From an uncultured Acidobacteriota bacterium (GTDB lineage: Bacteria; Acidobacteriota; Terriglobia; Terriglobales; Acidobacteriaceae), in the NCBI GenBank assembly GCA_963801615.1, contig CAWDFM010000004.1, positions 58,167 to 122,166 on the forward strand: a stretch of DNA of 64,000 bases, written 5' to 3'. Made by a program: the position numbers and the translations under genes. Numbering within the stretch: position 1 is the first letter of the stretch; every line of letters begins with the position of its first letter. Under the pieces are notes generated by a model. It had not been told where the DNA came from. It saw nothing but the letters and a program-made list of their open reading frames with translations, and did no database searches. Shown here piece by piece: positions 38,862 to 60,194 of this stretch.

Positions 38862-38959
38862 GCCTTTTGTCCCCCAGAGCCGAAAAGCATACTTCTCCCC
38901 CGGCAGCTCCGCAAGACTTTTATCGAGGCCGCCCTCTTCTATTCAGTTGTCCGGGAACC

Positions 38960-39133
38960 TTACTTGCAGGCCTTCCCGCGGCACAAGGGCATCGGGTCGC
39001 TACCGTCAGCCACTAGTACGATTTGTTCTGCTCCCAGGCGAGGCTTAACGGCCCGGTCAGCGCTTTGTGAGATTCCGCAATAAATACCGGCCAAGGCCAA
39101 CACCATCAGCAACATCTCGACTCTTTTCTTCAT
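38960..39133 (-). CDS. 57-aa secreted/anchored small protein
   Basis: Manual translation: MKKRVEMLLMVLALAGIYCGISQSADRAVKPRLGAEQIVLVADGSDPMPLCRGKACK. aggaga RBS upstream. Confidence 0.35.
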   Translation of the reverse strand: MKKRVEMLLMVLALAGIYCGISQSADRAVKPRLGAEQIVLVADGSDPMPLCRGKACK

Positions 39134-39825
39134 GGGGGAGTTCTCCTGGCGCAGAGTTCACGCCGGGCGAAGTATATGCCTCCCCGAGGCACGTATGCGC
39201 CCGGGAGCTGTGGATAACTTCTGATTTCTCGAACAGCTTCAGGAAAGGGCGACGCCGAGATGAGAAAGTGCACGCCTATTTTGCTCGCGCGCGTGCGGGA
39301 ACTCGTAAATGGAGGATCTTCGGGGCGACGGCCGGGCACATTGTGGCTATGTCCGGGAGGTAGAGCACGAACAACCTCGCCTCTGCAGACCACTTCACCC
39401 GTCGACAAGCCTGTGATTTCCGGTGGCAGCACGAGATTAATTTCAAGCTGCTACGGCCGCAGCACCGTCCGCTGTTTCGAGCACTGTGTAACCTCGGTTC
39501 TGCAGGTAGTGGCGAGACAGGTACATACACCTTCCAGACGAGCATTGGTTTGTGATTCAGCTCACACCCACTGGTGATCAACTGCAAAAGAAAGCTCTTC
39601 ATTCACTGGCTTTCGAATCCTGTGCACAGCACAATTCTATTTTCCATTCGGCAGCTTACCAAGAATACTGAAGACGCTGATCGACGAACCAAACTCGGCT
39701 AAATCTCGCGAAAACATACACATGGAATCGGCAGGTATTTTTCTCCGCATCCTGATGCAGGGCAGAGTTCGCCGAGCGCCGTTATGGTGCTCTCCCGGAA
39801 CAGCTATTCGCACCACTTTTGAAAT

Positions 39826-39856
39826 AGTGATTGAAATCACATTCAAGTGTGATTTC
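39826..39856. promoter_or_regulatory. two overlapping palindromes, one CRP/FNR-type (aGTGA-N6-TCACa)
   Basis: aGTGAttgaaaTCACa at 39826..39841 overlaps gaaatcaca-ttcaag-tgtgatttc at 39833..39856. They lie about 105 to 135 nt upstream of the Cyc2-like gene. Confidence 0.4.
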
Positions 39857-39961
39857 TGACCCGGCGCAGCGTCCACCAGGACCTGCTAGTATCGCTTTCA
39901 CCTTGGGAACTGGACTAGAGGCCAATATACCTCTCGAAATCATGGTCAGGAGACGATTTAC

Positions 39962-41317
39962 ATGAGGAAACTGGGGATATTCCTGCTTACGGTCATTCCG
40001 GTTGTGATTCTGTTGTCGGTGGCGGCTCTGAACCCGCCGAAGGTGGAGGCGGTTCCGAGTTATGCGCGGCAAACCGGATTAGCTTGCAGTGGCTGCCATT
40101 ACACTCCTCCGGAGCTAAATCCGGCGGGACGCAGATTCAAGTTGTTGGGATATGTAGACAAAGCGGATGAGACGAAGGTGGTGAAAGCCGATCCGGGGAA
40201 AAAGCGAGCGCCGCTCGATCTGCTGTCCTCATTACCCCTTTCCGCCTGGCTGGAGACTTCGTTCACTTCCACGAAATCAACCGTGCCCGGAACACAGAAT
40301 GGCAGCATTGAAATTCCCCAAGATGTATCCTTATTCATCTCCGGCGCCTGGACCACTCACGTGGGCAGTTTCATGCAAATGACTTACGACACGCAGGACG
40401 ATCACTTCAGTATGGATAACACAGACGTCCGCTACGCGAATAAGACCACGGTTGGGGGTAAGGAACTCGTATTCGGTCTGAACCTCAACAACAATCCCAC
40501 CATAGAAGATCTTTGGAATAGCACACCGGGATGGGGTTATCCGTTCGTGGCCGATGATTTTGCTCCGACTCCCACGGCTGCGCCCATCGTTGCCAGTTTG
40601 GGCCAGGATGTCGCGGGTTTCGGTGGCTATGCCATGTGGAACAACCACTTGTATGCCGACGCGACGTTCTACCGGTCCGCACACGTCGGAGGAACTCAGC
40701 CGACGGACGGAGTCGATTTTGGCTACAACATCCGCGGCCTGGCTCCGTACTGGCGAGTGGCATGGCAGCAGTTGACGGGAAAGACGCAGTACGAGTTCGG
40801 CACTTACGGCATGCACATGCGTTCCAGCCCGGGGGCCATTACCGGCCTGGAAGATAACTACACCGACTGGGCGATCGACACTCAGATCGATCGGACCTTG
40901 TTCAGAACCGACGTGCTTTCGCTGCGTGGCTCGTACATCCGCGAAAATTCGAATCTCGTCGCCAGCACCGCCTTGGGTGCGGCATCGGCGGGCAGTCATC
41001 ATTTGAATACTCTTTTCGCCAACGCCGAATACCATTTTGGCAATCGCGCGTCGGGCGCTTTGGGTTGGTTCGACACGAGCGGCACGGTTGACCCCCTCCT
41101 CTTTACTCAGGCGGCGGTGAGCGGAAGCGCCAATGGGGATCCGAGGGGCTCGGGTTACATCGCGAACTTCTCGTACTGGCCGTGGCAGAACCTGCAACTC
41201 TCGGCGCAGTACACCGGATACACCCGCTTCAATGGCGGCAGCACGAACTACGATGCCGCCGGCCGCAATGCAAGCGGGAACAACACCGTCTACCTGGTAG
41301 CAAGATTCATTTTCTGA
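39962..41317 (+). CDS. fused monoheme cytochrome c / outer-membrane beta-barrel protein (Cyc2-like architecture)
   Basis: Signal/anchor, then PSYARQTGLACSGCH with a single CxxCH at 40084..40098. This is followed by about 400 aa of an alternating beta-strand-like sequence ending ...VYLVARFIF (C-terminal aromatic residue). Confidence 0.75.
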   Translation: MRKLGIFLLTVIPVVILLSVAALNPPKVEAVPSYARQTGLACSGCHYTPPELNPAGRRFKLLGYVDKADETKVVKADPGKKRAPLDLLSSLPLSAWLETSFTSTKSTVPGTQNGSIEIPQDVSLFISGAWTTHVGSFMQMTYDTQDDHFSMDNTDVRYANKTTVGGKELVFGLNLNNNPTIEDLWNSTPGWGYPFVADDFAPTPTAAPIVASLGQDVAGFGGYAMWNNHLYADATFYRSAHVGGTQPTDGVDFGYNIRGLAPYWRVAWQQLTGKTQYEFGTYGMHMRSSPGAITGLEDNYTDWAIDTQIDRTLFRTDVLSLRGSYIRENSNLVASTALGAASAGSHHLNTLFANAEYHFGNRASGALGWFDTSGTVDPLLFTQAAVSGSANGDPRGSGYIANFSYWPWQNLQLSAQYTGYTRFNGGSTNYDAAGRNASGNNTVYLVARFIF

Positions 41318-44504: not shown

Positions 44505-45347
44505 ATGGCGAAAACGGTAGACCAGTATTTTGACGGCTTGCGCGAGACGCGTGTTTGGCGGTCCATTTTCCGCAGCGGGACGGGGTCGAGCACGCTGAAG
44601 CGGGCGCTGGCCATTCAGCAAAACGTGTTCCTGCACCTGTTCTCGACCAAAGTGCGCACGCGCATGTTGAGCTTCAGCGCCACCTGGTATCTAGGGACAC
44701 TGACGCTCGGCACATTTCTGATTCTGGTTGCGACCGGTATTCCCCTGATGCTTTATTACCATCCCTCGGCGCCGCAGGCGTACGCGGACACGAAAGATCT
44801 TCAGTTCGTGGTTTCTTCCGGATTATTTCTGCGCAACCTTCACCGCTGGTCTGCGCACGCGATGGTGTTTCTCGTCTTCGCGCACATGTTCAAAGTGTTT
44901 TATCGCGGCGCCTATCGCCCTCCGAGGGAATTCAACTGGGTGATCGGCATTGTTCTTCTCCTTATCACTCTGCTGCTCAGCTACACCGGATATCTGCTGC
45001 CGTGGGATCAATTAGCGTATTGGGCCATCACGGTGGGATCGAACATCGCATCCGCGGTTCCGGTAATCGGAGACAAGATTCACTTCCTTCTGCTCGGCGG
45101 GAACGCCGTCAATGCAAATGCACTGCTTCGGTTCTACGTGCTGCACTGCATGATTCTGCCGCTGGTAGCGATGTTCTTTGTCGCGATTCATTTCTGGCGC
45201 ATTCGCAAAGATGGCGGACTTTACGCTCATTCCAGTGAGCCTGCGGTTCTGCGAGGAAAGGCCAACAACACTGGGAGCGAGATTCCCACTTCTCGCAAAG
45301 GCAGCGAGAAGTGGGGCACCCAGGCGGAAGCCACGGAGGCGAAATAG
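44505..45347 (+). CDS. cytochrome b, N-terminal four-helix part (b6-like)
   Basis: Helix B has [18 protein letters not shown] (His pair 14 positions apart). Helix D has [18 protein letters not shown] (His pair 15 positions apart). [10 protein letters not shown] motif present. Confidence 0.9.
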
Positions 45348-45349
45348 CT

Positions 45350-46057
45350 ATGGCCGAAAGCAAAGACTTCATCGCCGGCGTGGATTCGAATGCCAAGAAG
45401 TCTCCGCGCCGCATTGTGTTCATCACACGGCGTACTTCTGCGCAGGTGAAGGTAGAGACGGAAGATCAGGTGCAAACCTTCCCAGAGGTCTTGTTTCGCG
45501 CGGCCGTTGCGATTCAGTTGCTGGCTATCGTCCTGGTGTGGACCGCGCTGCTGTTCAATGCGCCTCTGGAAGGACTGGCCGATCCCTCGCACACTCCGAA
45601 TCCCGCGAAGGCACCGTGGTACTTTCTGGGGCTGCAGGAGATGCTGCATTATTTCCCGCCAGTGGTCGCGGGGGTCCTGGTCCCCGGCTTAGTCGTGATG
45701 GCGCTGATCGTCATTCCATATTTCAAGGTCAACATCGAGGCTGACGGATTCTTTCTGAGGGACCGGCAGAAGCGGCTGATGATCTTCTACGCGGTGACTG
45801 CGTTACTCGTCATTTTCCTCGGGTTGTTCCACGTGCTCGTGGGATTGATACCGACGCTGATCATGGCCGGGTTGATGCTACTGGCTGCGCAGAGTTCTCC
45901 CCAGTCTCCATCCGCGTTCCGGCGGTATCTAGCAGAACGGCCGCTTTCCTATTGGGTGATGACCTGGTTCTTATTCGAACTGGTGGTGCTTACGGCCATC
46001 GGTACGTTCTTCCGCGGTCCAGGGTGGTCGTTTATCTGGCCGTGGCAAGGTTCATAA
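45350..46057 (+). CDS. cytochrome b C-terminal part (subunit IV-like)
   Basis: NPAKAPWYFLGLQEMLHYFPP (PEWY-equivalent region) plus additional TM helices. Confidence 0.8.
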   Translation: MAESKDFIAGVDSNAKKSPRRIVFITRRTSAQVKVETEDQVQTFPEVLFRAAVAIQLLAIVLVWTALLFNAPLEGLADPSHTPNPAKAPWYFLGLQEMLHYFPPVVAGVLVPGLVVMALIVIPYFKVNIEADGFFLRDRQKRLMIFYAVTALLVIFLGLFHVLVGLIPTLIMAGLMLLAAQSSPQSPSAFRRYLAERPLSYWVMTWFLFELVVLTAIGTFFRGPGWSFIWPWQGS

Positions 46058-48993: not shown

Positions 48994-51900
48994 TTATGCT
49001 GCGGGTGCAGATTCCTGTCGCGACAGATCTCTTTCTCGCAGCCAAGTGAAGATCACCGGAGTCACAATCAGAACATGCAGTAGGGAGCTGACCATGCCTC
49101 CGAGCACAGGGGTTGCGAGTGGCTTCATCACTTCAGCGCCGGTGCGGGTAGACCACATAATCGGTAAGAGCCCTGCTACAACCGTGGATACGGTCATGAT
49201 CTTGGGACGTAAACGCAACAAGGCGCCTTCCATAACCGCTTCACGCAATCCCTGTACCGTCAGTCCGCCCATCGCGGCTCGCTTTCGCTCCACCGCCTCT
49301 TCCAAATAGATAACCATCACTACACCGGTCTGCACCGCGGTGCCGAACAGGGCGATGAAGCCGACCCAAACGGCAACGGAGAAGTTGTACCCAAGCAGCT
49401 TCAGGAGAAACACTCCGCCGCTCAATGCAAAAGGTACGGCGAGGATCACGTGCGAGGCCTCTTTGAACGAGTTGTAGGTTTTGTAGAGCAGAAGAAAGAT
49501 GATCAGGAATACGACTGGAATGACGAGTTCAAGCCTTTTTTTGGCACTAATCTGGTTCTCGTACTGGCCACTCCACTCGATGTAGTAGCCTGGCGGCATT
49601 TTCACTTCGCGGGCGACAGCATGCTGCGCCTCGTCCACGAACCGGCCAACGTCGCGGCCGCGCACGTTCATCAGCACACTTCCTCGCAGCAAACCGTTTT
49701 CGCTGCTGATCATGGATGGCCCCATCACCACGCCAAGGTCTGCTACTTCTCCAAGAGGAATCTGAGCGCCGTTGCTGGCCGTGACCAGTACGTTGTTTCG
49801 CAACTGTTCGGGATTTTCGCGGAAATCAGGGGAGTAACGAACTCTGACGGGTAGACGTTGGCGACCGTCAATTGCGGTGGTAAGGTTCTTGCCGCCAATC
49901 GCGGTCTCGATCACGTCCTGCACGTCGCCGACGTTTATACCGTAGCGCGCGGCGGCTTCGCGATTCACCTTGATTTCCAGGTACGGAGCGCCGGTGATGC
50001 GCTCGGCATAGAGGTCAGCGACACCAGGAACCGGCCGCAGAGCCCGTTCGATTTCAGTCTCCTTCTGTTCGATGGTCGCGAGGTCGTTGCCAAAGACCTT
50101 TACTCCGACCTGCGTGCGAATGCCGGTCGAGAGCATGTCGATGCGGTTGCGGATGGGCTGGGTCCAGATGTTGGTCACACCCGGCAGACGGAGCTTCTCG
50201 TCCAGCCTTTGCAGGATCGTTTCTTTGGTGGCGCCAGCGGGCCATTTGTCCTTAGGCTTGAAGTTGATGACGGTTTCAGTCATGTTCACTGGCGCGGGAT
50301 CGATGGCGCTTTCTGCGCGACCGATTTTGCCAACGACGCTATCGACCAGCGGATCTTGCGCAATGATTTTGTCCTGCCACCGAAGAATCTCGGTTGCCTT
50401 GGTGAGCGAAATGCTCGGGTCGGTAATCGGCATGAACAGCGCAGTCTCTTCGTCGAGTGGCGGCATGAACTCCGAGCCGATCGTGGTGGCCAGCCAGAGC
50501 GCCGAGGCAAAGATTGCAACTGCCGCACTCAAAGTCACAATCCTGTGCTTTAAAGCCCAGCGCAGTACGGGTTTGTAGATCATTCCCAAGGCGTGCATCA
50601 CGGGATTCGCGTCCTCGCGGTGCAGCTTTCCACGGATCAGGAAGGTGCAAAGCACCGGGACCAAGGTGACCGCGATGAACGTAGAGCACACCATGGCGAA
50701 AGTTTTGGTAAAGGCCAGAGGGTGAAACATCTTGCCTTCCATCCCAGTCAGTGCAAACACGGGTACGAATGCCAAAATGATGATGGTCATGGCGAAGAAA
50801 ATCGGTCGACCGACTAATTTGGCTGCTTCGAGCGTGATCTGGCTAATCGCTGACTTGTATTCGCCATGTTCTTCGTAATAACGCTCTGCGTGCCGCAGCA
50901 CGTTTTCAGTCATCACGATGCCAGCATCGACCAACACTCCAATCGCAATGGCGATCCCTCCGAGTGACATGATGTTGGAAGAGATGTCCGCGTAGTGCAT
51001 GAAAAGAAATGATCCAAGTACCGCAAGCGGCAATGGCAGAGTCACAATGAGGATGCTGCGGAAGTGCCACAGGAAGATCACGTGCGCGAGCGTGACCAGA
51101 GCGATCTCTTCGAACAGCGCCGACTTTAGCGTGTTCACAGCATGAACGATCAAAGTACTGCGGTCGTAAAAAGGAACGATGTGGACACCTTTAGGTAGCC
51201 CTGGCTCGAGCGCTGCAAGTTTCGTTTTGATCCCGCTAATAACCTCCTGCGCGTTCGCCCCGTTGCGGATGACGACCACTCCGCCCACAACATCCTTGCC
51301 GTCCTTGTCGAGAACGCCGCGGCGGAATTCCGGTCCCAAATGGACGTTGGCAACGTTGCGGATGTAGACCGGTGTGCCACCCGTGGCGGTGAGGACGATA
51401 TTCTCAAGGTCGGCCGGCGAGCCAATCAAGCCAATCCCGCGGACTGCCATCTCCTGGTCGCTTGCTTCAATCACTTTTGCGCCAACATTGGTGTTACTGC
51501 GCTGGACGCCGTCGATTATGGTGCGCAAAGGAATGTTGTAGGCGCGCAGTTTGATAGGATCAACGTCGATCTGATATTGGCGTACCCAACCGCCAATGCT
51601 GGCCACTTCTGCCACGCCGGAAACAGAATTCAGCTGGTACTTGATGAACCAGTCCTGAAGGGAGTGCAGGGTTCCGCCGTCGTAGGGGCCCTCGACCGTG
51701 TACCAGAAAACTTGGCCCACGCCGGTTGCATCCGGACCTAGAACAGGTACGACTCCTTCCGGCAGGAAAGCCGATGCCAGGTTCAGCCGCTCCAAGACCC
51801 GTGTGCGCGCAAAATAGGGGTCAATCTTGTCCTGGAAAATGATGTTGATCATTGAGAAACCCAAGGCCGAGGAGGAGCGCACGTCTCTCACTCCCGCCAG

Positions 51901-52125
51901 ACCTTGCAAGTTCACAGTCAACGGATACGTGATCTGGTCTTCCACTTCCTGAGGACTGCGGCCTGCCCAGTCGGTGTAGACAATCACTTGGTTCTCGCTG
52001 AGATCAGGAATGGCGTCGATTGGCGTCCTTAGGAGTGCCCAGTAACCCCAAACAGCCAGCAGCGCGTAAGCCAGCAAAATGAGGCCGCGGTTCTTGAGCG
52101 AAAATTCAATGAGCCGATTGATCAT
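48994..52125 (-). CDS. CusA/CzcA-family heavy-metal efflux RND transporter
   Basis: 1043 aa. [24 protein letters not shown]-terminus and 12-TM HME-RND organisation. Confidence 0.95.
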
Positions 52126-52137
52126 AATTTCTCCTCA

Positions 52138-53727
52138 TCACTGCGCATTCAGCCGGGCGCGGTAGCTGCCTAGAAGTTGCCCGTTGCGGCTGGCATTAAC
52201 TTCGACATTCCAAGAGCCTGCCGACGGGACCTTGATGGTGCCCACGTACTCTGAGCCCTTCCATGTGAGGGCGGTCGAAGCACGCATCTCGGCCATTCCC
52301 ATTGCTGGCATCGCCGGCATAATCAGCGTGACCTTTATTTCCGCATCACTCACGGGCCTTCCGGAAGCCTCGAGCGCGGTCACGTGCAACGTGGCGTCGG
52401 AATTGCCACGTGGTGTTTGCGGATCGCAACGGAAGGTCAGCTTCATCTGAGATACAACCGGGGCTTGCGCCTGACCTTGGTCCGCCTGACCATGATCGAA
52501 TTCTTTCGATCCACCATAGAGTCCAGTCATGCCGCCGCTGATCCTGGTTTGTGAATCGATCAGGAAATTACCCTGACTGACAATGCGTTCGCCTTCTTTG
52601 ACTCCAGAGAGCACTGGGTAGTAGTCGTTGCCAGGCATTCCGAGTTGCACCTCTCGGCCTTCGAATTCCCCATTGCCTTTAGCTACGTAAACGATCTTGC
52701 GCATACCCGTATCGAGAACAGCCGAGCGGGGTATGGCCAGGACGTCGCGTGCTGCCGGTGCAGCAAACTTGACTTGCACGAACATGCCGGGACGCAATCG
52801 CATGTTGGGATTCGGAACCTGGATTCGAGCCGAGGCAGTGCGGGTCTGAGGGTTGATGGAAGTATCGAGAAATCCCACTCGCCCATGCAGGGTAGCGCCG
52901 GGTAGTGAGTCCGAAGTGATCTCAACGTTCTGGCCGGTATGCACAGCGGGCAAATCGGGCTGGTACACGTCGGCCTTTACCCAAATCGTGCTCAAGTCGA
53001 CCACGGTAAAAAGGACTTCGCCTGCGTTTACGTATTGCCCTTGGGTAACCTTGCGTTCGCTCACGATGCCGCTCACGGAGGCATAAATGGGGAGTTCGAT
53101 CTGCGGTTTCTCCGACGATGCGATCTCATCAAGCTGCGGTGGAGTGAGTCCCCAAAGTTCGAGCCGGCGGCGGCTGGCGGTTACGAGATCTTCGGCCCCT
53201 GCGACTGCAAGGGGCTCGGCGCTTTTGGCCAGACGCCTTTGGTTCTCGATCGCGAGCCTGTACTCTTCAGCGGCGGAAAACACTTCCGGACTGTAAAGCG
53301 ATGCGATGATCTGACCACGACGCACTTGCTGGCCCGTGAAATCCAGGTTGAGTTTGTCGATGCGGCCACCGATGCGGGCACTGATCGAAGCCAGTTGGGT
53401 TTCCGGTTCGTCTACTTTGGCGACAGTCATCAGAGCGCGTTGAAGGTTACGTCGCCTGACTTCGACCGTTTCGACACCAATGTCCTTCTGTTCTTTCTGG
53501 TCGAGTTGAATACTGGAAACCGAGGAGTCAGCCTGGGCTTGCTCATGTTCTGCTCTTCGAGACGTGGTTTGGTCTAACGGTGTCTCGTACTCGGGAATCT
53601 GGCCTTCTTGAGTCTGGGCAGCGCTACGCTCGGGTTGCCAAAGGCGAGTCGCGCCGTACACGACGAAGGCCAGCACCAGCCCGAGAGCGAGTCCTGTGCC
53701 AAGAAGTTTCTTTTCATGATGTGTCAT
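52138..53727 (-). CDS. efflux RND periplasmic adaptor (CusB-like) with extra C-terminal Met-rich YtkA/FixH-like domain
   Basis: The adaptor core (barrel-sandwich/lipoyl motifs) is followed by ...LTFRCDPQTPRG...IMPAMPAMGMAEMRAS...GSWNVEVNA. Confidence 0.9.
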   Translation of the reverse strand: MTHHEKKLLGTGLALGLVLAFVVYGATRLWQPERSAAQTQEGQIPEYETPLDQTTSRRAEHEQAQADSSVSSIQLDQKEQKDIGVETVEVRRRNLQRALMTVAKVDEPETQLASISARIGGRIDKLNLDFTGQQVRRGQIIASLYSPEVFSAAEEYRLAIENQRRLAKSAEPLAVAGAEDLVTASRRRLELWGLTPPQLDEIASSEKPQIELPIYASVSGIVSERKVTQGQYVNAGEVLFTVVDLSTIWVKADVYQPDLPAVHTGQNVEITSDSLPGATLHGRVGFLDTSINPQTRTASARIQVPNPNMRLRPGMFVQVKFAAPAARDVLAIPRSAVLDTGMRKIVYVAKGNGEFEGREVQLGMPGNDYYPVLSGVKEGERIVSQGNFLIDSQTRISGGMTGLYGGSKEFDHGQADQGQAQAPVVSQMKLTFRCDPQTPRGNSDATLHVTALEASGRPVSDAEIKVTLIMPAMPAMGMAEMRASTALTWKGSEYVGTIKVPSAGSWNVEVNASRNGQLLGSYRARLNAQ

Positions 53728-55124
53728 CAGCGCACCTCCGGAGTGATCTGAGGAAGAGAAGCTTGAGGGCCGGTTGTGTTCGATTCGTGTCCGTCCCGTG
53801 GCAGGGAAGTTCCCACCGCACGTTCGAGATCGGCGATTCGCGATTCCAGTTCGGATGCGGAGCGGTAGTAATCGAGTTCAACTTCGAGGGCCGTGTTCTG
53901 GCTGTCGAGCAAGTTGAGGAAGTCGGTGCGGTCGACCTGATAAGCAGCAACCGTTGACTTTAATGTTGCCTGTGCCTGGGGACGAAGCGTCTGGTTGTAA
54001 AGATCAACGAGGCGCTTCGCAGACTGCGCGCGAATCAGAGCATCCTGGATTTCCTGGAAGACGATCGCCCGTTGGTTTTCGTACTCTGCTCTTTCAGCCG
54101 AGACCTCCGCTTGGGCTTCGGCGATCTCCGCGTCGTGGCGCCCTCGATTCAGCCAGGGCAACGTGACAGCGACCTCCGCCATATAGGTGTTGCGATAACG
54201 GGCGCCGTCCGGCATGAGCATATAGCCAGCGCTCAGGTTGTAGTCAGGCGTGTAGGATTTCTCGGCCAGTTTGGTGCGGGCCTCACCTTGCCGCACGCCT
54301 GAAGATGCCATCGCCAACTCGGGCCGATTCTCCAAAGCGGTCTTTTCCAGGTCTAAGAGTGCGGGGAGCTTTTGCGGCGGCGAATAATCGCCCTGAAGTT
54401 CCAGTGGAGATGCGGGGTCTCGTCCCAGGAGTGTATTCAGTCGGGCGCGCGCGAGACCGCCGTCCTGTTCGAGCATCACCAGGTGCTCGACAAGTTTAGT
54501 AAGTGCAATCTGCGCTTTCAGCACGTCCTGCTGCGGAACGCGACCGACAACATACTTGATCCGCGCCGACTCGGAGGACTCGCGAGCCAGCGCCGCCTGC
54601 TCGTCATGCAGCAGGAGTTCGTCTTGATTGCGGAGGAGGTCATAGAATGTCTTCCGAACTTCAGCCGTGACATCGCGCTTTTTGGCGTCCAGTTCCGCTT
54701 TGACCTGCTCCACTCCCTCCGAGGCGAGTTGAGTGCGCAGGGCCCGCTTACCCGGACCGGGCAGTGACTGATTGAACATGAACATGTGCTGCGTCTGGTT
54801 CAGATCCCATGGCCTGGCGAGTGGTGTGCCCCAACCGCGATACATGAATTCGGGGTCGCTCAACGACCCAGCGCTGCGCACCCGTGTCTCGGCGATTGCG
54901 ACGCGACGCATAGCTACCCGGATTTCGAAATTGTTTGCCAACGCAGCTGCTTCGAGTTCGTTAAGACTCATGGGCGGCGTGGACGACCGAGGGTGCTGAT
55001 GCTCCTGCGCCAGAAGGCCAGTCACACCAGACAGGGGATCGACATTGGCGGGGGGCTCATTGGCAAAGCCCACGGCACCGCTGAAGGCAATCAGCAGGCA
55101 AATACTTACACGTAGAACTTTCAT
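53727..55124 (-). CDS. TolC/CusC-family outer-membrane efflux protein
   Basis: Start taken at MKVLRVSICLLIAFSGAVGFA, with ggagg RBS. Two OEP repeats. Confidence 0.85.
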   Translation of the reverse strand: MKVLRVSICLLIAFSGAVGFANEPPANVDPLSGVTGLLAQEHQHPRSSTPPMSLNELEAAALANNFEIRVAMRRVAIAETRVRSAGSLSDPEFMYRGWGTPLARPWDLNQTQHMFMFNQSLPGPGKRALRTQLASEGVEQVKAELDAKKRDVTAEVRKTFYDLLRNQDELLLHDEQAALARESSESARIKYVVGRVPQQDVLKAQIALTKLVEHLVMLEQDGGLARARLNTLLGRDPASPLELQGDYSPPQKLPALLDLEKTALENRPELAMASSGVRQGEARTKLAEKSYTPDYNLSAGYMLMPDGARYRNTYMAEVAVTLPWLNRGRHDAEIAEAQAEVSAERAEYENQRAIVFQEIQDALIRAQSAKRLVDLYNQTLRPQAQATLKSTVAAYQVDRTDFLNLLDSQNTALEVELDYYRSASELESRIADLERAVGTSLPRDGHESNTTGPQASLPQITPEVR

Positions 55125-55234
55125 TGCTCCTCCGTAAACAGTTAACGAGTCGAGGGATAGGAGGCATGTTGCTGCCAGCCGCACCAAAGGCGCAGCAAGG
55201 CAGGGCACGACTTCATCCGGGCAATGAAAGTTGT

Positions 55235-55612
55235 CTAGATTCTCAAAACAGAATTACAGCCGGGGGACAGTTCCGGTGGTGGAGCGTGAAGAAATGAGAG
55301 GTGGGCGCGCACGGTTACAGCGGGCAATGCTCCTGAGGAGGCGACTGGTGGTAACACAGCAATTGTGAGGGGACGAACCGGTCCGGCAGCCTGCGCCTGG
55401 GGAAGAACAGTGTTCGTCGGTGCCTGAGCCTTGCAGCACGAGTGACTGGCCGGCATCATGGAACTTCCACACTGCTCCGCCATGTGGTGGCAGCACTCCC
55501 GTTCCGCGGGAGTCATCGTCGCACCTGGCAGAACACACGCCATGGCTGGCGTGATGGCCCACAGAAGGGCAATCGTCAGCAGGGCGCATGCTCGAGTTCT
55601 AGTCACTCTCAT
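55235..55612 (-). CDS. secreted Cys/His/Met-rich small protein upstream of the efflux operon
   Basis: Signal peptide, then ERECCHHMAEQCGSSMMPASHSCC. Confidence 0.5.
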   Translation of the reverse strand: MRVTRTRACALLTIALLWAITPAMACVLPGATMTPAERECCHHMAEQCGSSMMPASHSCCKAQAPTNTVLPQAQAAGPVRPLTIAVLPPVASSGALPAVTVRAHLSFLHAPPPELSPGCNSVLRI

Positions 55613-56266: not shown

Positions 56267-57019
56267 GCACATCCTCCAGATACTTTGCATTATTAGTTCA
56301 GTAAGGTAGTTGCGATGTACGCTCATTCGTCGTCTGAGTAACGTGAGACGTACGCACGGCCCCTACGTCGTGCCCCCTGGGGAGGGAAGTGGGTTACGCG
56401 AGAATAACAGTGGTGGAGTGGAAGATAGACATGTAGCAGCGCGAATTTGCACTCAAATTACAAACTTAACAATCGGCAATGAAGAGTACTTCACTATTCG
56501 ACTACGCATAATAGCGCTCGACCATTACATGACTTCATTCCCATGCCAACTGTATCCAGTAGCGACGGATAGTCGAATGCGCCTGCCCATACCAACGCTG
56601 TAGTCGCACGTATTTAACATTTATTACTTGTATAGACATAGTGTTAAGTTTGTTAAACCTTCGCAAAATCAGCGTGCGGAGCTTAGATATTTGCTGTTGA
56701 ACAAAATCGGTAACCGCAAGCCCGCATAAGCTCAGCTCACTTCACGACTGAAGTTGCGACTCGTGAGTGTAGCAGCGGCATTCGGCGCTCCCCCCAAGTG
56801 CTAAGTCGGCCGCTGACTGAAGTAGTGGGGATCCATAACAAAGCATCATGAACGGTAATTAGAGCTGGATGCGGCGGCTCAACGCAGGCACATCTAGCTA
56901 TCGCTGAATGTCTGTGCACGGTTACAGCTCGCAAAGTGTCCGGTACCGTGCACCGCAAACAGCACTTATCGTCCCGAGCGCGGTGTGCGCCCGCAAGTAA
57001 GCCAGGAGGCTACACGGTC

Positions 57020-58621
57020 ATGAGGAAGATGTCATCAATCTATCTCTCCCTAGTTCTGGTCGTGGTTGCGACCGTCGCCGCAAGCGGCCAGTCGTTCCAG
57101 GTCCAGTGTCCAACCAGCACGATCACCCACCCGTCGGCACTCCACGACAACAATTCGGAACCTGCCTATACCGCTCCGACGACTCTTGCCACAGGCGCCG
57201 CTGGATATCTGGCGCCGACAGCGAACGTGAACGGCGCGATCAAGTGCCAGCAGATTTCGGGCGGCGACGGTTTCGCGTCGATGGGCGACGGCACCCAGAC
57301 GTATCTGTTTGCCTTCGGTCCTCTGTCGGGATTGGCAGACATGTCGAAAGGGCTGCCCGGCACACAGTTCCCGGACGTATTCAATACGGTCGCGCCTCCG
57401 TTGTTGCCCGGTGATCCGGCCACGTCTGACGGCGCACGTCAGTCCCCGTATTCCTTCGGTGACCCCTCGTTGTTCACTTATAACGGCGCCGTCGGACTGG
57501 CTCCTGACTTGGACGCCATCGCGGCTGGTTCTTGCACCGCTCCATGCCTCGATGGGCACGTCGATCCGCGGCCGATCATGGATGTTGGCGTCATGAATGG
57601 CAACATACCGGCGCCTCTGATGGCGATTGATGAAGATGACGAGTTCTTCCTTACTCTGTCGAACGTCGGCCAAGTTATGCGCCCGGACCTGTTCGAGCAG
57701 CACACGGTTCACTTTCATGGCTATCCCAATGCTTCCGCCTTCTATGACGGCGTGCCGGACGCTTCGGTCGCCATTAACATCGGGGGCAGCTTCACCTATT
57801 ACTATCTGGCGCCCGATGCGGGCACGTACTTCTGGCACTGCCACATCACGCCCCCAGAGCACTTACAGATGGGCATGGTGGGCCAGCTTTATGTGCGGCC
57901 GCGTCAGAATCGAGTCCCAGGCACTACGAGGCTTTATGCCGCACTCCAGCAACAGCAACTGGATCCGCGCACGAAATGCGATTCCACTGACATCCTCTGC
58001 AGCAATCCACTGCCGGCGGTGGATACAGGTGCGACAGGGGGGGCCAAGTACGCCTACAACGATGGCGACGGCACGACCAGATACGACGTCGAGTATCCCC
58101 TCCAGATCCACGGCTTCGATCCAAATTTCCACTTTGTCGGCATGACTTTCAATCCGGAAGGCTTTACGGAGATGAAGGACAAGTACTTCTTGCTGAACGG
58201 CCGCAGTTATCCCGACACCGTGCATGAAGGGCCGCTGGCGACGCAGACGACGGATGGCTCCTTGCATTACGCGCAGCCGATGTCTGCGATCATCAACATT
58301 CCGGCCGGTGGAAGGGCGCTCCTGCGCATTGCGGACCTGGACGTCACGGAATATCAGACGCTGGCCTCGCTGGGCATCCCGATGCAGGTAATCGCGCTCA
58401 ATGCCAAGCTGCTGCGCGACCAGTCGGGAAACAACCTCTATTACAACACCAACTCGATCACGTTGGCGGGCGGCGAATCACTCGACGTGATTCTGGATGC
58501 CAGCGACAAAGACAAGTATCCCTCCGGTAGCGTGTTTTATCTCTACACCCCCAATCTTGACCACTTGTCGAACGATGCCGAGAACTTCGGTGGCCTGATG
58601 ACCGAAGTCCGGATCAATTAG
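57020..58621 (+). CDS. multicopper-oxidase-like subunit A: T1 site plus half of the trinuclear-cluster ligands in its first cupredoxin domain
   Basis: Signal peptide MRKMSSIYLSLVLVVVATVAASGQ. Motifs HTVHFHG (H-x-x-H-x-H) and WHCHITPPEHLQMGM (H-C-H...H...M). The second cupredoxin domain has no ligand motifs. aggagg RBS. Confidence 0.85.
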   Translation: MRKMSSIYLSLVLVVVATVAASGQSFQVQCPTSTITHPSALHDNNSEPAYTAPTTLATGAAGYLAPTANVNGAIKCQQISGGDGFASMGDGTQTYLFAFGPLSGLADMSKGLPGTQFPDVFNTVAPPLLPGDPATSDGARQSPYSFGDPSLFTYNGAVGLAPDLDAIAAGSCTAPCLDGHVDPRPIMDVGVMNGNIPAPLMAIDEDDEFFLTLSNVGQVMRPDLFEQHTVHFHGYPNASAFYDGVPDASVAINIGGSFTYYYLAPDAGTYFWHCHITPPEHLQMGMVGQLYVRPRQNRVPGTTRLYAALQQQQLDPRTKCDSTDILCSNPLPAVDTGATGGAKYAYNDGDGTTRYDVEYPLQIHGFDPNFHFVGMTFNPEGFTEMKDKYFLLNGRSYPDTVHEGPLATQTTDGSLHYAQPMSAIINIPAGGRALLRIADLDVTEYQTLASLGIPMQVIALNAKLLRDQSGNNLYYNTNSITLAGGESLDVILDASDKDKYPSGSVFYLYTPNLDHLSNDAENFGGLMTEVRIN

Positions 58622-58631
58622 GAGCGCAGCA

Positions 58632-60194
58632 ATGAGGGCGATGAACATGAAAAAAGCGATCTCGAAAACACAAGTGCTTCTGGCAACGATGGTGGCAGTG
58701 ACTTGGTTGTTTACTGCCATGGCCCATGCTGCGGTTCCCGGGATAACCGGCCCGACGTTCAACCTGACGGCGCGGCCGGCTTACATCAGCCAGCCCGACG
58801 GATCAGCTGTTTATTCCTGGGGATACGGCTGCAGTGTCGCGCCGAGCGGTTTTGCTCCGGCTCTCACCGGCGCCACGTGCCCAACCATGCAAGTTCCCGG
58901 GCCTACGCTGATCGTCACGCAAGGAGCGACGGTCATCGTAAAGCTCACGAATAATCTGCCCGATGCAGCCGGGAACACATCAATTCTGTTCCCCGGATTT
59001 CAGGTGACCGCAACCGACGGTGTAAATGGGCTGCTGACGCGAGAGGCGGGCCGCGCGACGTCAAACGATACGGTGACCTACACCTTCGTTGCCTCGACTC
59101 CGGGCACACACGCCTACTACAGCGGAACTCAAGGCGACCTGCAGGTCGAGATGGGCTTATATGGGGCAATCATTGTCCTCCCCTCGAGTACCCCGGCCGC
59201 CTGCGATTCGGGAGTGCATGCTTCCAACGGGATGGCGCAGAGCCGCTGGGGCGAAACCGATTTCCGGCTCGCCCACGCAGCGTACAACCACCCGGGAGCT
59301 TGCTACGACCGGGAATACCTCTTCCAGTACTCCGAAATGGATCCCAGGATTCACCGACAAGCCGAAGAGCAGTCCACCAGGGGCTGTACTGGTTGCATGA
59401 ACGTTGCCACCGAGCCTTATGTTCCAGCCTATTTCATGATCAACGGGCGCTCGATGCCGGACCTCATGGATCCAAACTATGCCAGGGAATATCCGCACCA
59501 ACCTTACAACGGCAATCCGCACATGCATCCGGGTGAGTTGACGCTGCTGCGCATCATCGGCACCGGGCGTTGGCAACACCCCTTCCACGAGCACGGCAAC
59601 CACGTACGCATTCTGGCGCGCGATGGCAATTTGATTCTCAGCGCGACCGACGCTAACAGTCTCGCCGGACCTCTGCTGTTCACCACGACTACGACTCCCG
59701 GCCTCACGATGGACGGAATTTACTACTGGACCGGCAAAGGTCTGAACTGGGATCCGTATGGTCACAACGCAGTCTCCGGATCCACCCTGCCTTGCACCCC
59801 GGACGCTAATGGCTACAACACGAGTGCTTACAATGCGATCAATTACTTCGAGTGGTGCCAGGATCACAACAAGCCTTTGCAGACTCATCCGTTCGGCGAC
59901 GTCGCAGGCGGCGGTCCGGCGACTCTGCCTGATCCCAACATCTTGGCGAACGGTCCCTGGTTCGGCGGCAGTCCCTATCTGGGGCCGGAGGCAACGGTGC
60001 GCGCTGTCGGCAACACCGGCACCACGCCGCCGTCCGGCACGGTGGCGAATGCACCTGATGCAGAAGCTGGCTTTGCCTTCATGTGGCACTCGCACAATGA
60101 GCGCGAAATCACCACCAACAACATTTTCCCGGGCGGAATGCTGATGATGATGCTGGTCGATTCCCGGGAATTTGTCATCGACGAGTCCAACTAA
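58632..60194 (+). CDS. multicopper-oxidase-like subunit B: ligand-less first domain; last domain carries H-x-x-H-x-H and H-S-H (no T1 Cys)
   Basis: Signal peptide. The first domain has FPGF and AYYSG where HxHG and WYHSH would be expected. The C-terminal domain has QHPFHEHGNH and FMWHSHNEREI. aggag RBS. Confidence 0.85.
   Translation: MRAMNMKKAISKTQVLLATMVAVTWLFTAMAHAAVPGITGPTFNLTARPAYISQPDGSAVYSWGYGCSVAPSGFAPALTGATCPTMQVPGPTLIVTQGATVIVKLTNNLPDAAGNTSILFPGFQVTATDGVNGLLTREAGRATSNDTVTYTFVASTPGTHAYYSGTQGDLQVEMGLYGAIIVLPSSTPAACDSGVHASNGMAQSRWGETDFRLAHAAYNHPGACYDREYLFQYSEMDPRIHRQAEEQSTRGCTGCMNVATEPYVPAYFMINGRSMPDLMDPNYAREYPHQPYNGNPHMHPGELTLLRIIGTGRWQHPFHEHGNHVRILARDGNLILSATDANSLAGPLLFTTTTTPGLTMDGIYYWTGKGLNWDPYGHNAVSGSTLPCTPDANGYNTSAYNAINYFEWCQDHNKPLQTHPFGDVAGGGPATLPDPNILANGPWFGGSPYLGPEATVRAVGNTGTTPPSGTVANAPDAEAGFAFMWHSHNEREITTNNIFPGGMLMMMLVDSREFVIDESN

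Follow-up and report, generated by a model that had tools for sequence, protein, structure and literature searches.

A Cyc2-family cytochrome-porin gene heads an operon predicted to encode a Kuenenia-type Rieske/cytochrome b complex in a Terriglobia acidobacterium

The stretch of DNA analysed here, 64,000 nucleotides (nt) in length and hereafter called the window, derives from an uncultured acidobacterium of the Terriglobia (family Acidobacteriaceae; assembly GCA_963801615.1, contig CAWDFM010000004.1, positions 58,167 to 122,166 of the forward strand). It harbours a gene for a protein of 451 amino acids (aa) which, by motif, modelled fold and homology, is a member of the Cyc2 family of fused cytochrome-porins. 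An earlier note, made from the letters of the window, had placed this open reading frame (ORF) on the forward strand, where it is indeed found (Table 1), and had likened its architecture to that of the outer-membrane Fe(II) oxidase Cyc2. The gene is the head of a tightly packed operon of eight genes, missed by that note, which all lie on the forward strand and are separated by successive gaps of 27, 96, 12, 1, 2, 13 and -4 nt. The seven genes that follow encode a cupredoxin, an iron-sulfur flavoprotein, a Rieske protein, a cytochrome b, a subunit-IV-like membrane protein, an octaheme cytochrome c and a monoheme cytochrome c.

The features that the note had read in the 451-aa protein all stand. 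The signal sequence, MRKLGIFLLTVIPVVILLSVAALNPPKVEA, has a hydrophobic core, is modelled as a helix over residues 2-23 and carries a cleavage-type site between VEA and V, with a low-confidence linker at residues 25-31 in the AlphaFold2 model. The single heme motif near the mature N-terminus is CSGCH, at residues 42-46 and ~11 residues from the predicted mature start, and its two cysteines are the only ones in the protein. The C-terminal ARFIF is equally present, the chain finishing in ...VYLVARFIF with phenylalanine as its last residue. The expected beta-barrel is predicted as 16 long strands spanning residues 93-450, preceded by a short helical N-terminal segment; the model, built from an alignment of 131 sequences with identities of 38-93%, has a mean predicted local distance difference test score (pLDDT) of 87.8 and a predicted template modelling score (pTM) of 0.83. 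When compared with the PDB by Foldseek, it matches the 16-strand porins OmpT, OmpU, Omp32 and OmpF, with the highest query TM-score, 0.49, obtained for OprP (2o4v). Keffer et al. 2021 describe OprP/OprO as the structural neighbour of Cyc2 and likewise predict 16 strands for it.

Assignment to the family followed the operational criteria of Keffer et al. 2021 and FeGenie, namely a length of at least 365 aa, a signal peptide, a CXXCH motif, the flanking motifs and a barrel. The P-x-F-A-R ... C-x-x-C-H signature, which the note had ascribed to this family, is real and was published by Keffer et al. 2021, who report the sequence AXPXFAR[Q/K][T/Y] before CXXCH, and a PXL element four residues after it, as unique to Cyc2. 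At 451 aa the window protein exceeds this minimum length, and it has an N-terminal signal peptide. It reads AVPSYARQT-GLA-CSGCH-YTP-PEL, agreeing with AXPXFAR[Q/K][T/Y] at eight of the nine positions and with the correct spacing, and its PXL element (H46-YTP-P50-E-L52) lies four residues past CXXCH. The one departure is a tyrosine instead of phenylalanine, a conservative exchange on account of which the strict pattern PXFAR[Q/K][T/Y] would reject the protein. Family representatives at 31-61% identity, with E-values from 1e-53 to 1e-168, mostly carry the sequence A[VIL]PSFARQTG...CXXCH, and the alignment consensus is AVPSFARQTG.

The closest species-level relatives comprise 80 loci from one genome-contig search; nearly all belong to Terriglobia, and known iron oxidisers lie outside its reach. 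The closest genomes are metagenome-assembled genomes (MAGs) of Terriglobia, many of which were obtained in projects on peat, bog, palsa or soil. The nearest, with 79% identity, is Ca. Sulfotelmatobacter; Acidobacteriaceae, Terriglobales, Ca. Acidiferrales and Bryobacteraceae come next, and a few relatives are supplied by Binatia and other phyla. Residues P32, R36, Q37, C42, C45, H46 and L52 are identical in all 80 loci and P50 in 77 of them. Among the representatives of at least 400 aa, down to ~31% identity, each has exactly one CXXCH in the same context, the family pattern being A-[VIL]-P-S-[FY]-A-R-Q-T-G, CXXCH and (F)P-x-L, and nearly all end in an aromatic residue. Since the CXXCH and these flanking positions are invariant in the 80 relatives, and each of the representatives has the one CXXCH, the motif is not there by chance. 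A near-invariant methionine was considered as distal heme ligand and dropped, as the window protein has tryptophan at this position and the column varies between M, W, L and F.

The wider family is large. Clustering at 90% identity gives more than 5,359 clusters of homologs, labelled without exception 'hypothetical' or 'cytochrome C', whilst at 50% identity there are 2,370 representatives with E <= 1e-3, of which 402 reach E <= 1e-30. By tblastn, full-length homologs that cover at least 89% of the length at 30-35% identity, with E-values from 1e-40 to 1e-64, were found on plasmids and megaplasmids of Ralstonia, Caballeronia, Paraburkholderia, Ideonella, Methylocystis, Acidiphilium cryptum JF-5 and Acidithiobacillus ferrooxidans. 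Ralstonia and Burkholderia are among the genera in the Cyc2 set of Keffer et al. 2021. A published similarity network joins A. ferrooxidans Cyc2 to homologs from Burkholderiales and Acidiphilium, and Cyt572 to homologs from Acidobacteria; furthermore, FeGenie-based metagenome surveys have scored Acidobacteriota MAGs as cyc2-positive, putative iron oxidisers. The gene class is therefore not new in Acidobacteriota. Neither Pfam nor NCBIfam has a family match for the 451-aa protein, and Pfam has none for 81 aligned relatives. When PDB sequences were searched with the family profile, the only similarity was to a multiheme cytochrome, over 37 residues at the N-terminus (E 0.02). The PDB holds no Cyc2 structure.

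Two kinds of divergent relatives were observed. One relative of 641 aa (P0212) has an N-terminal extension of ~200 residues, carries the label 'cytochrome b561' from the Joint Genome Institute and has its CXXCH at residue 228; here a membrane b-type cytochrome may have been fused to a protein of the Cyc2 type. A subfamily of further relatives (P0165, P0182, P0187, P0191, P0195, P0208, P0226, P0233, P0246, P0254, P0262, P0263 and P0267) is marked by CXCH followed by V/I-G-[GA]-F-G-P-[QRA]-L-T, which replaces T-x-F-P-E-L-T. The PXL element of the subfamily is displaced by two residues, which suggests a different heme environment.

Thus, the published signature, the predicted fold and the occurrence of homologs in groups that the literature ties to Cyc2 together place the protein with the Cyc2 fused cytochrome-porins, and the motif, barrel and cupredoxin neighbour on which the note had based its comparison were all verified. 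Covalent heme attachment and an outer-membrane location are predicted. The label 'iron oxidase' is a separate matter and is not established for this branch. Keffer et al. 2021 themselves regard function far from the characterized clades as uncertain and allow for additional functions.

Table 1. Predicted genes and features of the operon and the region before it (positions in the window).
Feature	Position	Strand	Basis
Candidate operator, overlapping palindromes AGTGA-TTGAAA-TCACA-TTCAAG-TGTGA	39826..39852		Sequence reading; ~110-135 nt before start codon
Cyc2-family fused monoheme cytochrome-porin, 451 aa, ATG start	39962..41317	+	ORF, homologs, AlphaFold2 model
Signal peptide, residues 1-30	39962..40051	+	Hydrophobic 19-mer at residues 1-19; cleavage after VEA inferred from AXA pattern
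Cytochrome signature A30-V-P-S-Y-A-R-Q-T-GLA-C42SGCH46-YTP-P50EL52	40049..40117	+	Keffer 2021 motif, Y for F
16-strand beta-barrel, residues 93-450, end ...ARFIF	40238..41311	+	DSSP strands in AlphaFold2 model; porin fold matches
Type-1 cupredoxin with C-terminal CarboxypepD_reg Ig-like domain, 200 aa	41345..41947	+	Pfam, signal peptide, CNVHPEM motif
Cytoplasmic NAD(P)/FAD iron-sulfur flavoprotein, 651 aa	42044..43999	+	Pfam Fer4_20, Pyr_redox_2, Fer4; PRK12771
Rieske [2Fe-2S] subunit, twin-arginine translocation (TAT) signal NRRQFF, 163 aa	44012..44503	+	Pfam Rieske; CTH...CPCH motif
b6-type (short) cytochrome b, 280 aa	44505..45347	+	Pfam Cytochrome_B, E 1e-44
Subunit-IV-like membrane protein (cytochrome b C-terminal part)	45350..46057	+	Pfam Cytochrom_B_C; five hydrophobic segments
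Membrane-anchored octaheme cytochrome c, 694 aa	46071..48155	+	Eight CXXCH, N-terminal hydrophobic anchor, Pfam cytochrome c families
Big_1 (Ig-like) domain with monoheme cytochrome c, 244 aa	48152..48886	+	Pfam Big_1, Cytochrome_CBB3; one CXXCH

The second gene encodes a periplasmic cupredoxin, as the note had read it, with a signal peptide and a Pfam Copper-bind score of 30.3 bits against a cut-off of 21.2. Its PDB sequence matches are plastocyanin, amicyanin and the cupredoxin domains of nitrite reductases, and the copper ligands H93, C133, H136 and M139, with an amicyanin-like C133-x2-H136-x2-M139 loop, are kept in 36-37 of 37 orthologs. The flavoprotein combines a GltD/NfnB-like core with a C-terminal 2x[4Fe-4S] ferredoxin domain (NCBIfam PRK12771, 454 bits), is without a signal peptide and contains 21 cysteines, including two CxxCxxCxxxC motifs. 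Its nearest relatives in the PDB are those of NfnABC (9bov/9bp5, E 1.7e-91), and a homolog search returned close orthologs with generic names only. The Rieske subunit finds its two best PDB matches in 9rk4 (E 4e-23) and 9rk3 (E 2e-18); every Rieske protein of a b6f or bc1 complex ranks below them. The cytochrome b scores 257 bits with the NCBIfam model for ExtP (cut-off 290) and 189 bits with that for cytochrome b6. For the subunit-IV-like protein, the start is probably the ATG at 45350; a GTG at 45311 is also open, and the orthologs have been called at 235 aa. The octaheme cytochrome begins with four c3/c7-like heme sites and continues with four class-I cytochrome c domains, all eight heme sites being kept in 35-37 of 37 orthologs. 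The start of the last gene overlaps its stop by 4 nt, as do the corresponding boundaries in orthologs, and the encoded Big_1-cytochrome c is a probable lipoprotein with a lipobox-like LLATSC. Across the operon, the copper, [2Fe-2S] and heme ligands checked are all conserved in 35-39 orthologs. Judged by the targeting signals, the flavoprotein would be cytoplasmic, the Rieske protein, octaheme cytochrome and cupredoxin would be periplasmic, and the Cyc2-type protein would reside in the outer membrane.

This arrangement recurs widely amongst the 80 loci. The full module, including the flavoprotein, is present in 38 of them, with the Cyc2-like gene first in 27, last in 10 and in a variant order in one locus from Binatia; a single locus lacks the flavoprotein alone, which brings the linked loci to 39, and three are cut by contig ends. 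At a further 13 loci the Cyc2-like gene lies beside a different Rieske/cytochrome b pair (27-48% identity), at 15 it adjoins a divergent cupredoxin, and 10 have none of these neighbours, at least five of the latter having a gene for a 122-aa monoheme cytochrome c directly upstream. Starting from the flavoprotein, the operon was recovered on all three of the long contigs. On two of these contigs the head slot is occupied by a different Cyc2-type protein, AIPAFSRQYGTSCSTCH...FPKL (L088:7741-9315 and L089:7710-9026), next to flavoproteins 86-87% identical to that of the window. This protein aligns to the window protein over its first 50-70 residues only (blastp ~3e-8), and a comparison of the family with the slot proteins by hhalign gave 97.7% probability over 52 columns, confined to the cytochrome segment. 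The two loci appear to reflect a swap between distant family branches within one operon slot, the homology of the barrels being unproven. Because the linkage survives both rearrangement and paralog exchange, the genes probably form a functional unit.

Some individual loci differ in other respects. The two loci with the exchanged head gene also have an extra ORF of ~435 aa (L088:16770-18074; L089:16802-18109), absent from the window operon, which overlaps the end of the Big_1-cytochrome gene and has neither a Pfam match nor a CXXCH. One Terriglobales MAG (DATMQI01) contributes two paralogs in different contexts (L013 and L048), one in the full NAD(P)-linked operon and the other beside a different Rieske/cytochrome b pair (36-37% identity). 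At the locus of a 44% identical relative (P0316, L085), the named members of whose group are labelled Gammaproteobacteria, the Cyc2-like gene is followed by one for a 208-aa cytochrome c and directly preceded by a gene for a Crp/Fnr-family regulator, with HemN and cytochrome bd oxidase also encoded, a low-oxygen context.

Upstream of the operon, ~1.1 kb (38862-39961) contain short overlapping ORFs, no convincing gene and, near the 3' end, the palindromes listed in Table 1. These comprise a CRP-type TGTGA-N6-TCACA together with a third half-site. Of 29 orthologous operons in which the Cyc2-like gene comes first, 24 have a GTGA-N6-TCAC element in the 400 nt upstream of that gene, against a background of 0.057 per 400 nt; the palindromes may act as an operator. 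Canonical FNR (TTGAT-N4-ATCAA) and Escherichia coli-type Fur boxes were both absent upstream of the operon. Rfam has no match in the window, and scans for sigma-70 promoters and terminators gave nothing informative.

Directly downstream of the operon, on the reverse strand (48994-55208), lies a CusCBA-type heavy-metal efflux system composed of an AcrB-family pump, an outer-membrane factor and an HlyD/CusB-type adaptor that includes a YtkA-like domain. Next to it (55235-55612, reverse strand) is the gene for a small secreted protein, CCHHMAEQCGSSMMPASHSCC, in which Cys, His and Met are abundant, and two neighbouring multicopper-oxidase-like ORFs of 561 and 520 aa are found at 56936-60194 on the forward strand. 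Together these genes look like a copper-handling island. They were considered as parts of the operon's system and rejected because the flanks differ in orthologous loci (L001/L002 and L087-L089).

The six genes from the flavoprotein onwards match in composition the unusual Rieske/cytochrome b complexes of the anammox bacterium Kuenenia stuttgartiensis, from which 9rk4 (Kuste4569) and 9rk3 (Kustd1480) derive. Kuenenia has two such complexes, which combine a four-helix, b6-like cytochrome b with a subunit IV, a cytochrome c with six or eight hemes and a cytoplasmic NAD(P) oxidoreductase; NfnABC is the reported fold neighbour of one component, Kuste4570. The complexes have been proposed to split the electrons of quinol between a high-potential acceptor and NAD(P)+, the reduction of NAD(P)+ being still a hypothesis. 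In the window, cytochrome b is similarly split, the 280-aa Cytochrome_B ORF being followed by a separate Cytochrom_B_C ORF, the Rieske protein is related to Kuste4569 and Kustd1480, an octaheme cytochrome c takes the place of cytochrome f/c1 and the oxidoreductase is Nfn/GltD-like. The midpoint potentials of these two proteins, the closest solved Rieske homologs, are +303 and +335 mV, the higher belonging to Kustd1480, whose Ser/Phe tuning pair is also that of the window protein. The operon is accordingly predicted to encode an NAD(P)-linked complex of the Kuenenia type. Its cytochrome b, subunit IV and octaheme cytochrome appear to be related to ExtP, ExtQ and ExtS of Geobacter without being equivalogs of them, with scores below the NCBIfam cut-offs throughout (ExtP 257/290, ExtQ 62/150, ExtS 94/100).

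In a Cyc2-type barrel, the N-terminal ~60 residues would bear a single c-type heme, positioned at the periplasmic mouth or inside it. According to the pore argument of Keffer et al. 2021, small soluble species alone, such as iron ions and small iron chelates, could reach this heme. The components of the operon could then be arranged as a chain from the flavoprotein via cytochrome b, subunit IV and the Rieske protein to the octaheme and lipoprotein cytochromes c, and on through the cupredoxin and the Cyc2 heme to iron in the pore; that electrons pass from part to part, that the substrate is iron and which way the electrons run are all inferred. Tentatively, flow outwards to soluble Fe(III) is preferred here. 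The Rieske/cytochrome b complex would oxidise menaquinol and reduce the cupredoxin. In a comparable step, the b6f complex reduces plastocyanin. In soil or peat that is acidic and poor in oxygen, Fe(III) in soluble or organically complexed form would then re-oxidise the cupredoxin by way of Cyc2. A heterotroph would thereby gain a high-potential electron sink, and, should the bifurcation hypothesis for Kuenenia hold, the second electron of the quinol would reduce NAD(P)+. The chain is probably reversible, by analogy with what has been proposed for Cyc2 and rusticyanin in A. ferrooxidans.

Several considerations led to outward flow being rated slightly above inward flow, among them the quinol-oxidising complex, the lack of an oxidase, the Fe(III)-reducing cultured relatives and the A. 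ferrooxidans proposal. Complexes of this kind run forward in the direction of quinol oxidation and need a high-potential acceptor. Within the operon, Cyc2 is the sole candidate oxidant of the cupredoxin: the operon contains no oxidase, and neither oxidase nor carbon-fixation genes are present in the 64-kb window. As its Rieske/cytochrome b complex oxidises quinol and no oxidase accompanies it, the gene context is no less consistent with export than with import. Heterotrophic reduction of Fe(III) is known from cultured Terriglobia (Acidicapsa, Acidobacterium capsulatum) and from Acidiphilium cryptum JF-5, none of which has a recognised reductase, and JF-5 has a homolog of the window protein (tblastn, H14). 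In A. ferrooxidans, a route from bc1 through cytochrome c and rusticyanin to Cyc2 has been proposed for Fe(III) reduction. The cytochrome b and octaheme subunits, moreover, fall only a little short of the cut-offs for ExtP and ExtS, with subunit IV a weaker match to ExtQ, and the Geobacter cluster to which these belong is Fe(III)-induced and includes an OprP-like porin. Several points nevertheless weigh against outward flow. The three biochemically characterized members of the family all oxidise Fe(II), Fe(III) reduction by a Cyc2 is a proteomic inference in A. ferrooxidans only, and the reduction of NAD(P)+ by Kuenenia-type complexes is itself unproven. All 80 related loci stem from MAGs and so have no phenotype attached, and a terminal oxidase encoded elsewhere could draw on the cupredoxin, in which case Cyc2 could equally be an input. 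Moreover, much of the Fe(III) present at pH 4-5 takes the form of colloids or is attached to large organic matter and, unlike Fe2+, may fail to enter a narrow pore.

The classical role, ranked only slightly lower, is that Fe(II) is oxidised at the outer membrane and its electrons pass inwards to the cupredoxin and then to an oxidase encoded elsewhere, or, when reducing power is needed, uphill through the co-encoded Rieske/cytochrome b complex. A. ferrooxidans Cyc2, Cyt572 and Cyc2 PV-1 are all Fe(II) oxidases, a narrow pore with a single heme behind it is suited to soluble Fe2+, the pairing with a cupredoxin resembles that with rusticyanin, and Rieske potentials such as those of the solved relatives suit a high-potential chain. 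The classification of Acidobacteriota MAGs by FeGenie agrees with this role, as does the proteobacterial relative near a Crp/Fnr-type regulator, cytochrome bd and HemN, a setting typical of microaerophilic iron oxidation. Set against these points, the A. ferrooxidans rus operon includes an oxidase where neither the operon nor the window does, the linked complex oxidises quinol and its reverse reaction is uphill by ~120 mV, as calculated from cited standard potentials, and Keffer et al. 2021 caution against transferring function to distant branches. A review of acidophilic iron reducers has cultured Terriglobia as Fe(III) reducers only. A heterotroph would also have small need of uphill electron flow. 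No cultured member of the Terriglobia is known to oxidise Fe(II) lithotrophically. An elaboration of outward flow, in which the eight genes form one machine reaching from cytoplasm to cell surface and bifurcating the electrons of menaquinol, is unlikely as it stands. One electron would exit via the octaheme cytochrome, cupredoxin and Cyc2 to soluble Fe(III), and the other would be forced energetically uphill, by way of the b hemes and then the iron-sulfur flavoprotein, and yield NAD(P)H.

Less probable again is a partner other than iron, whether manganese, copper, small quinone or phenolic humic shuttles, or reactive oxygen or nitrogen species, or else a role as redox sensor or protective valve serving a periplasmic high-potential pool. 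Homologs in Ralstonia, Caballeronia, Methylocystis and Ideonella, which are without known iron metabolism, would be accommodated by such a role, for which the additional functions envisaged by Keffer et al. 2021 leave room; Geobacter ExtI, an OprP-like porin, has been linked to selenite and tellurite reduction. The CusCBA-type efflux system and two multicopper-oxidase-like genes after the operon point the same way, but this copper-gene neighbourhood is not conserved, the loci L001/L002 and L087-L089 having other flanks. Furthermore, the literature searched offers no experimental precedent for a non-iron Cyc2 substrate, and the signature motif is strictly conserved with that of the proven iron oxidases. 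Finally, it is very improbable that the protein is an ordinary diffusion porin with an incidental CXXCH, no heme and redox neighbours by coincidence. Its barrel is most like those of general porins and OprP, and no curated family model detects the cytochrome domain. Nevertheless, the only two cysteines form the CXXCH that is invariant, with flanking positions, in all 80 relatives, the N-terminal segment is the most conserved part and the sole one alignable to the divergent slot paralog, and the linkage to periplasmic electron carriers outlasts three operon rearrangements.

The protein is a further member of a known family; it is the combination of a Cyc2 gate, a cupredoxin and a Kuenenia-type complex in one operon that appears undescribed. 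No relevant description was found in open-access papers and preprints for cyc2 in connection with Rieske proteins, cupredoxins or Terriglobia. Functional statements about the operon are drawn from sequence and should be read as such. Terriglobia are among the most abundant bacteria of peat and acidic soils, environments in which the storage of carbon, the binding of nutrients and the production of methane are governed by iron redox cycling, and they have no recognised machinery for iron respiration. The operon provides a concrete candidate pathway for acidobacterial iron metabolism in either direction, in an arrangement kept across dozens of species with a conserved candidate operator ahead of it, and it extends Kuenenia-type complexes, discussed so far mainly for anammox bacteria, to common soil bacteria. 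It also cautions that not every metagenomic match to cyc2 signifies iron oxidation. If Fe(II) oxidation were the true role, abundant soil Terriglobia would be facultative (mixotrophic) iron oxidisers. If, instead, the eight genes do form a bifurcating machine, it would be the Fe(III) reductase that has long been sought in acidophilic heterotrophs such as Terriglobia and Acidiphilium, and would provide Kuenenia-type Rieske/cytochrome b complexes with a physiological 'favourable branch'. In that event Cyc2 could work as a reductase, and metagenome calls of the form 'cyc2 = iron oxidiser' would be unsafe.

Several known systems resemble the operon in part. In common with MtrCAB, MtoAB and PioAB, it has an outer-membrane barrel and c-type heme, which would carry electrons across the outer membrane for iron redox chemistry. 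However, those conduits consist of a 26-strand barrel around a separate decaheme protein and can touch solids. The window protein has 16 strands and one heme in a single polypeptide, and would therefore be restricted to soluble substrates. The extHIJKLMNOPQS cluster of Geobacter sulfurreducens, which is conserved and Fe(III)-induced, pairs the OprP-like porin ExtI and c-type cytochromes with the Rieske protein ExtO, the cytochrome b ExtP, the membrane protein ExtQ and the lipoprotein cytochrome ExtS. It differs in that ExtI is heme-free and is accompanied by separate multiheme cytochromes, with no cupredoxin and no NAD(P) flavoprotein, whereas the window operon is without the rhodanese and the selenoprotein cytochrome.

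The closest likeness of the head protein is to the Cyc2 family itself, as represented by A. ferrooxidans Cyc2, Mariprofundus Cyc2 PV-1 and Leptospirillum Cyt572 (Keffer 2021, McAllister 2020). With these it shares a length of ~450 aa, a signal peptide, a single N-terminal CXXCH with AXPX[F]AR[Q/K][T/Y] and PXL, a 16-strand OprP-like barrel and an adjoining gene for a periplasmic one-electron carrier. It departs from them in the tyrosine that replaces the phenylalanine of the motif, in its host, a heterotrophic Terriglobia acidobacterium that is not a known iron oxidiser, and in its genetic linkage, which is with a Rieske/cytochrome b complex and neither with an oxidase nor with a Cyc1-type cytochrome. 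At the level of the whole chain, the rus and petI systems of A. ferrooxidans, in which Cyc2 and rusticyanin are connected through Cyc1/CycA1 to an aa3 oxidase or through bc1 to NDH-1, likewise comprise an outer-membrane Cyc2, a periplasmic cupredoxin, a Rieske/cytochrome b complex and a route to NAD(P), and have been proposed to operate in both directions, in Fe(II) oxidation and in anaerobic Fe(III) reduction. In the window, by contrast, all of the parts lie in one operon without an oxidase. The complex, which is of the b6 type and includes an octaheme cytochrome c, brings an NAD(P)/FAD iron-sulfur subunit of its own in place of any reliance on NDH-1, and the cupredoxin is amicyanin/plastocyanin-like, with an extra Ig-like domain, and is not a rusticyanin. 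With the Kuenenia complexes (PMC12954380), the operon has in common the b6-like cytochrome b, subunit IV, multiheme cytochrome c and Nfn/GltD-like oxidoreductase. Here, however, they occur in an aerobic or facultative soil acidobacterium that has no anammoxosome, there is no HAO-like subunit, and the complex is genetically coupled to an outer-membrane cytochrome-porin and a cupredoxin, a coupling which suggests an extracellular partner for its high-potential branch.

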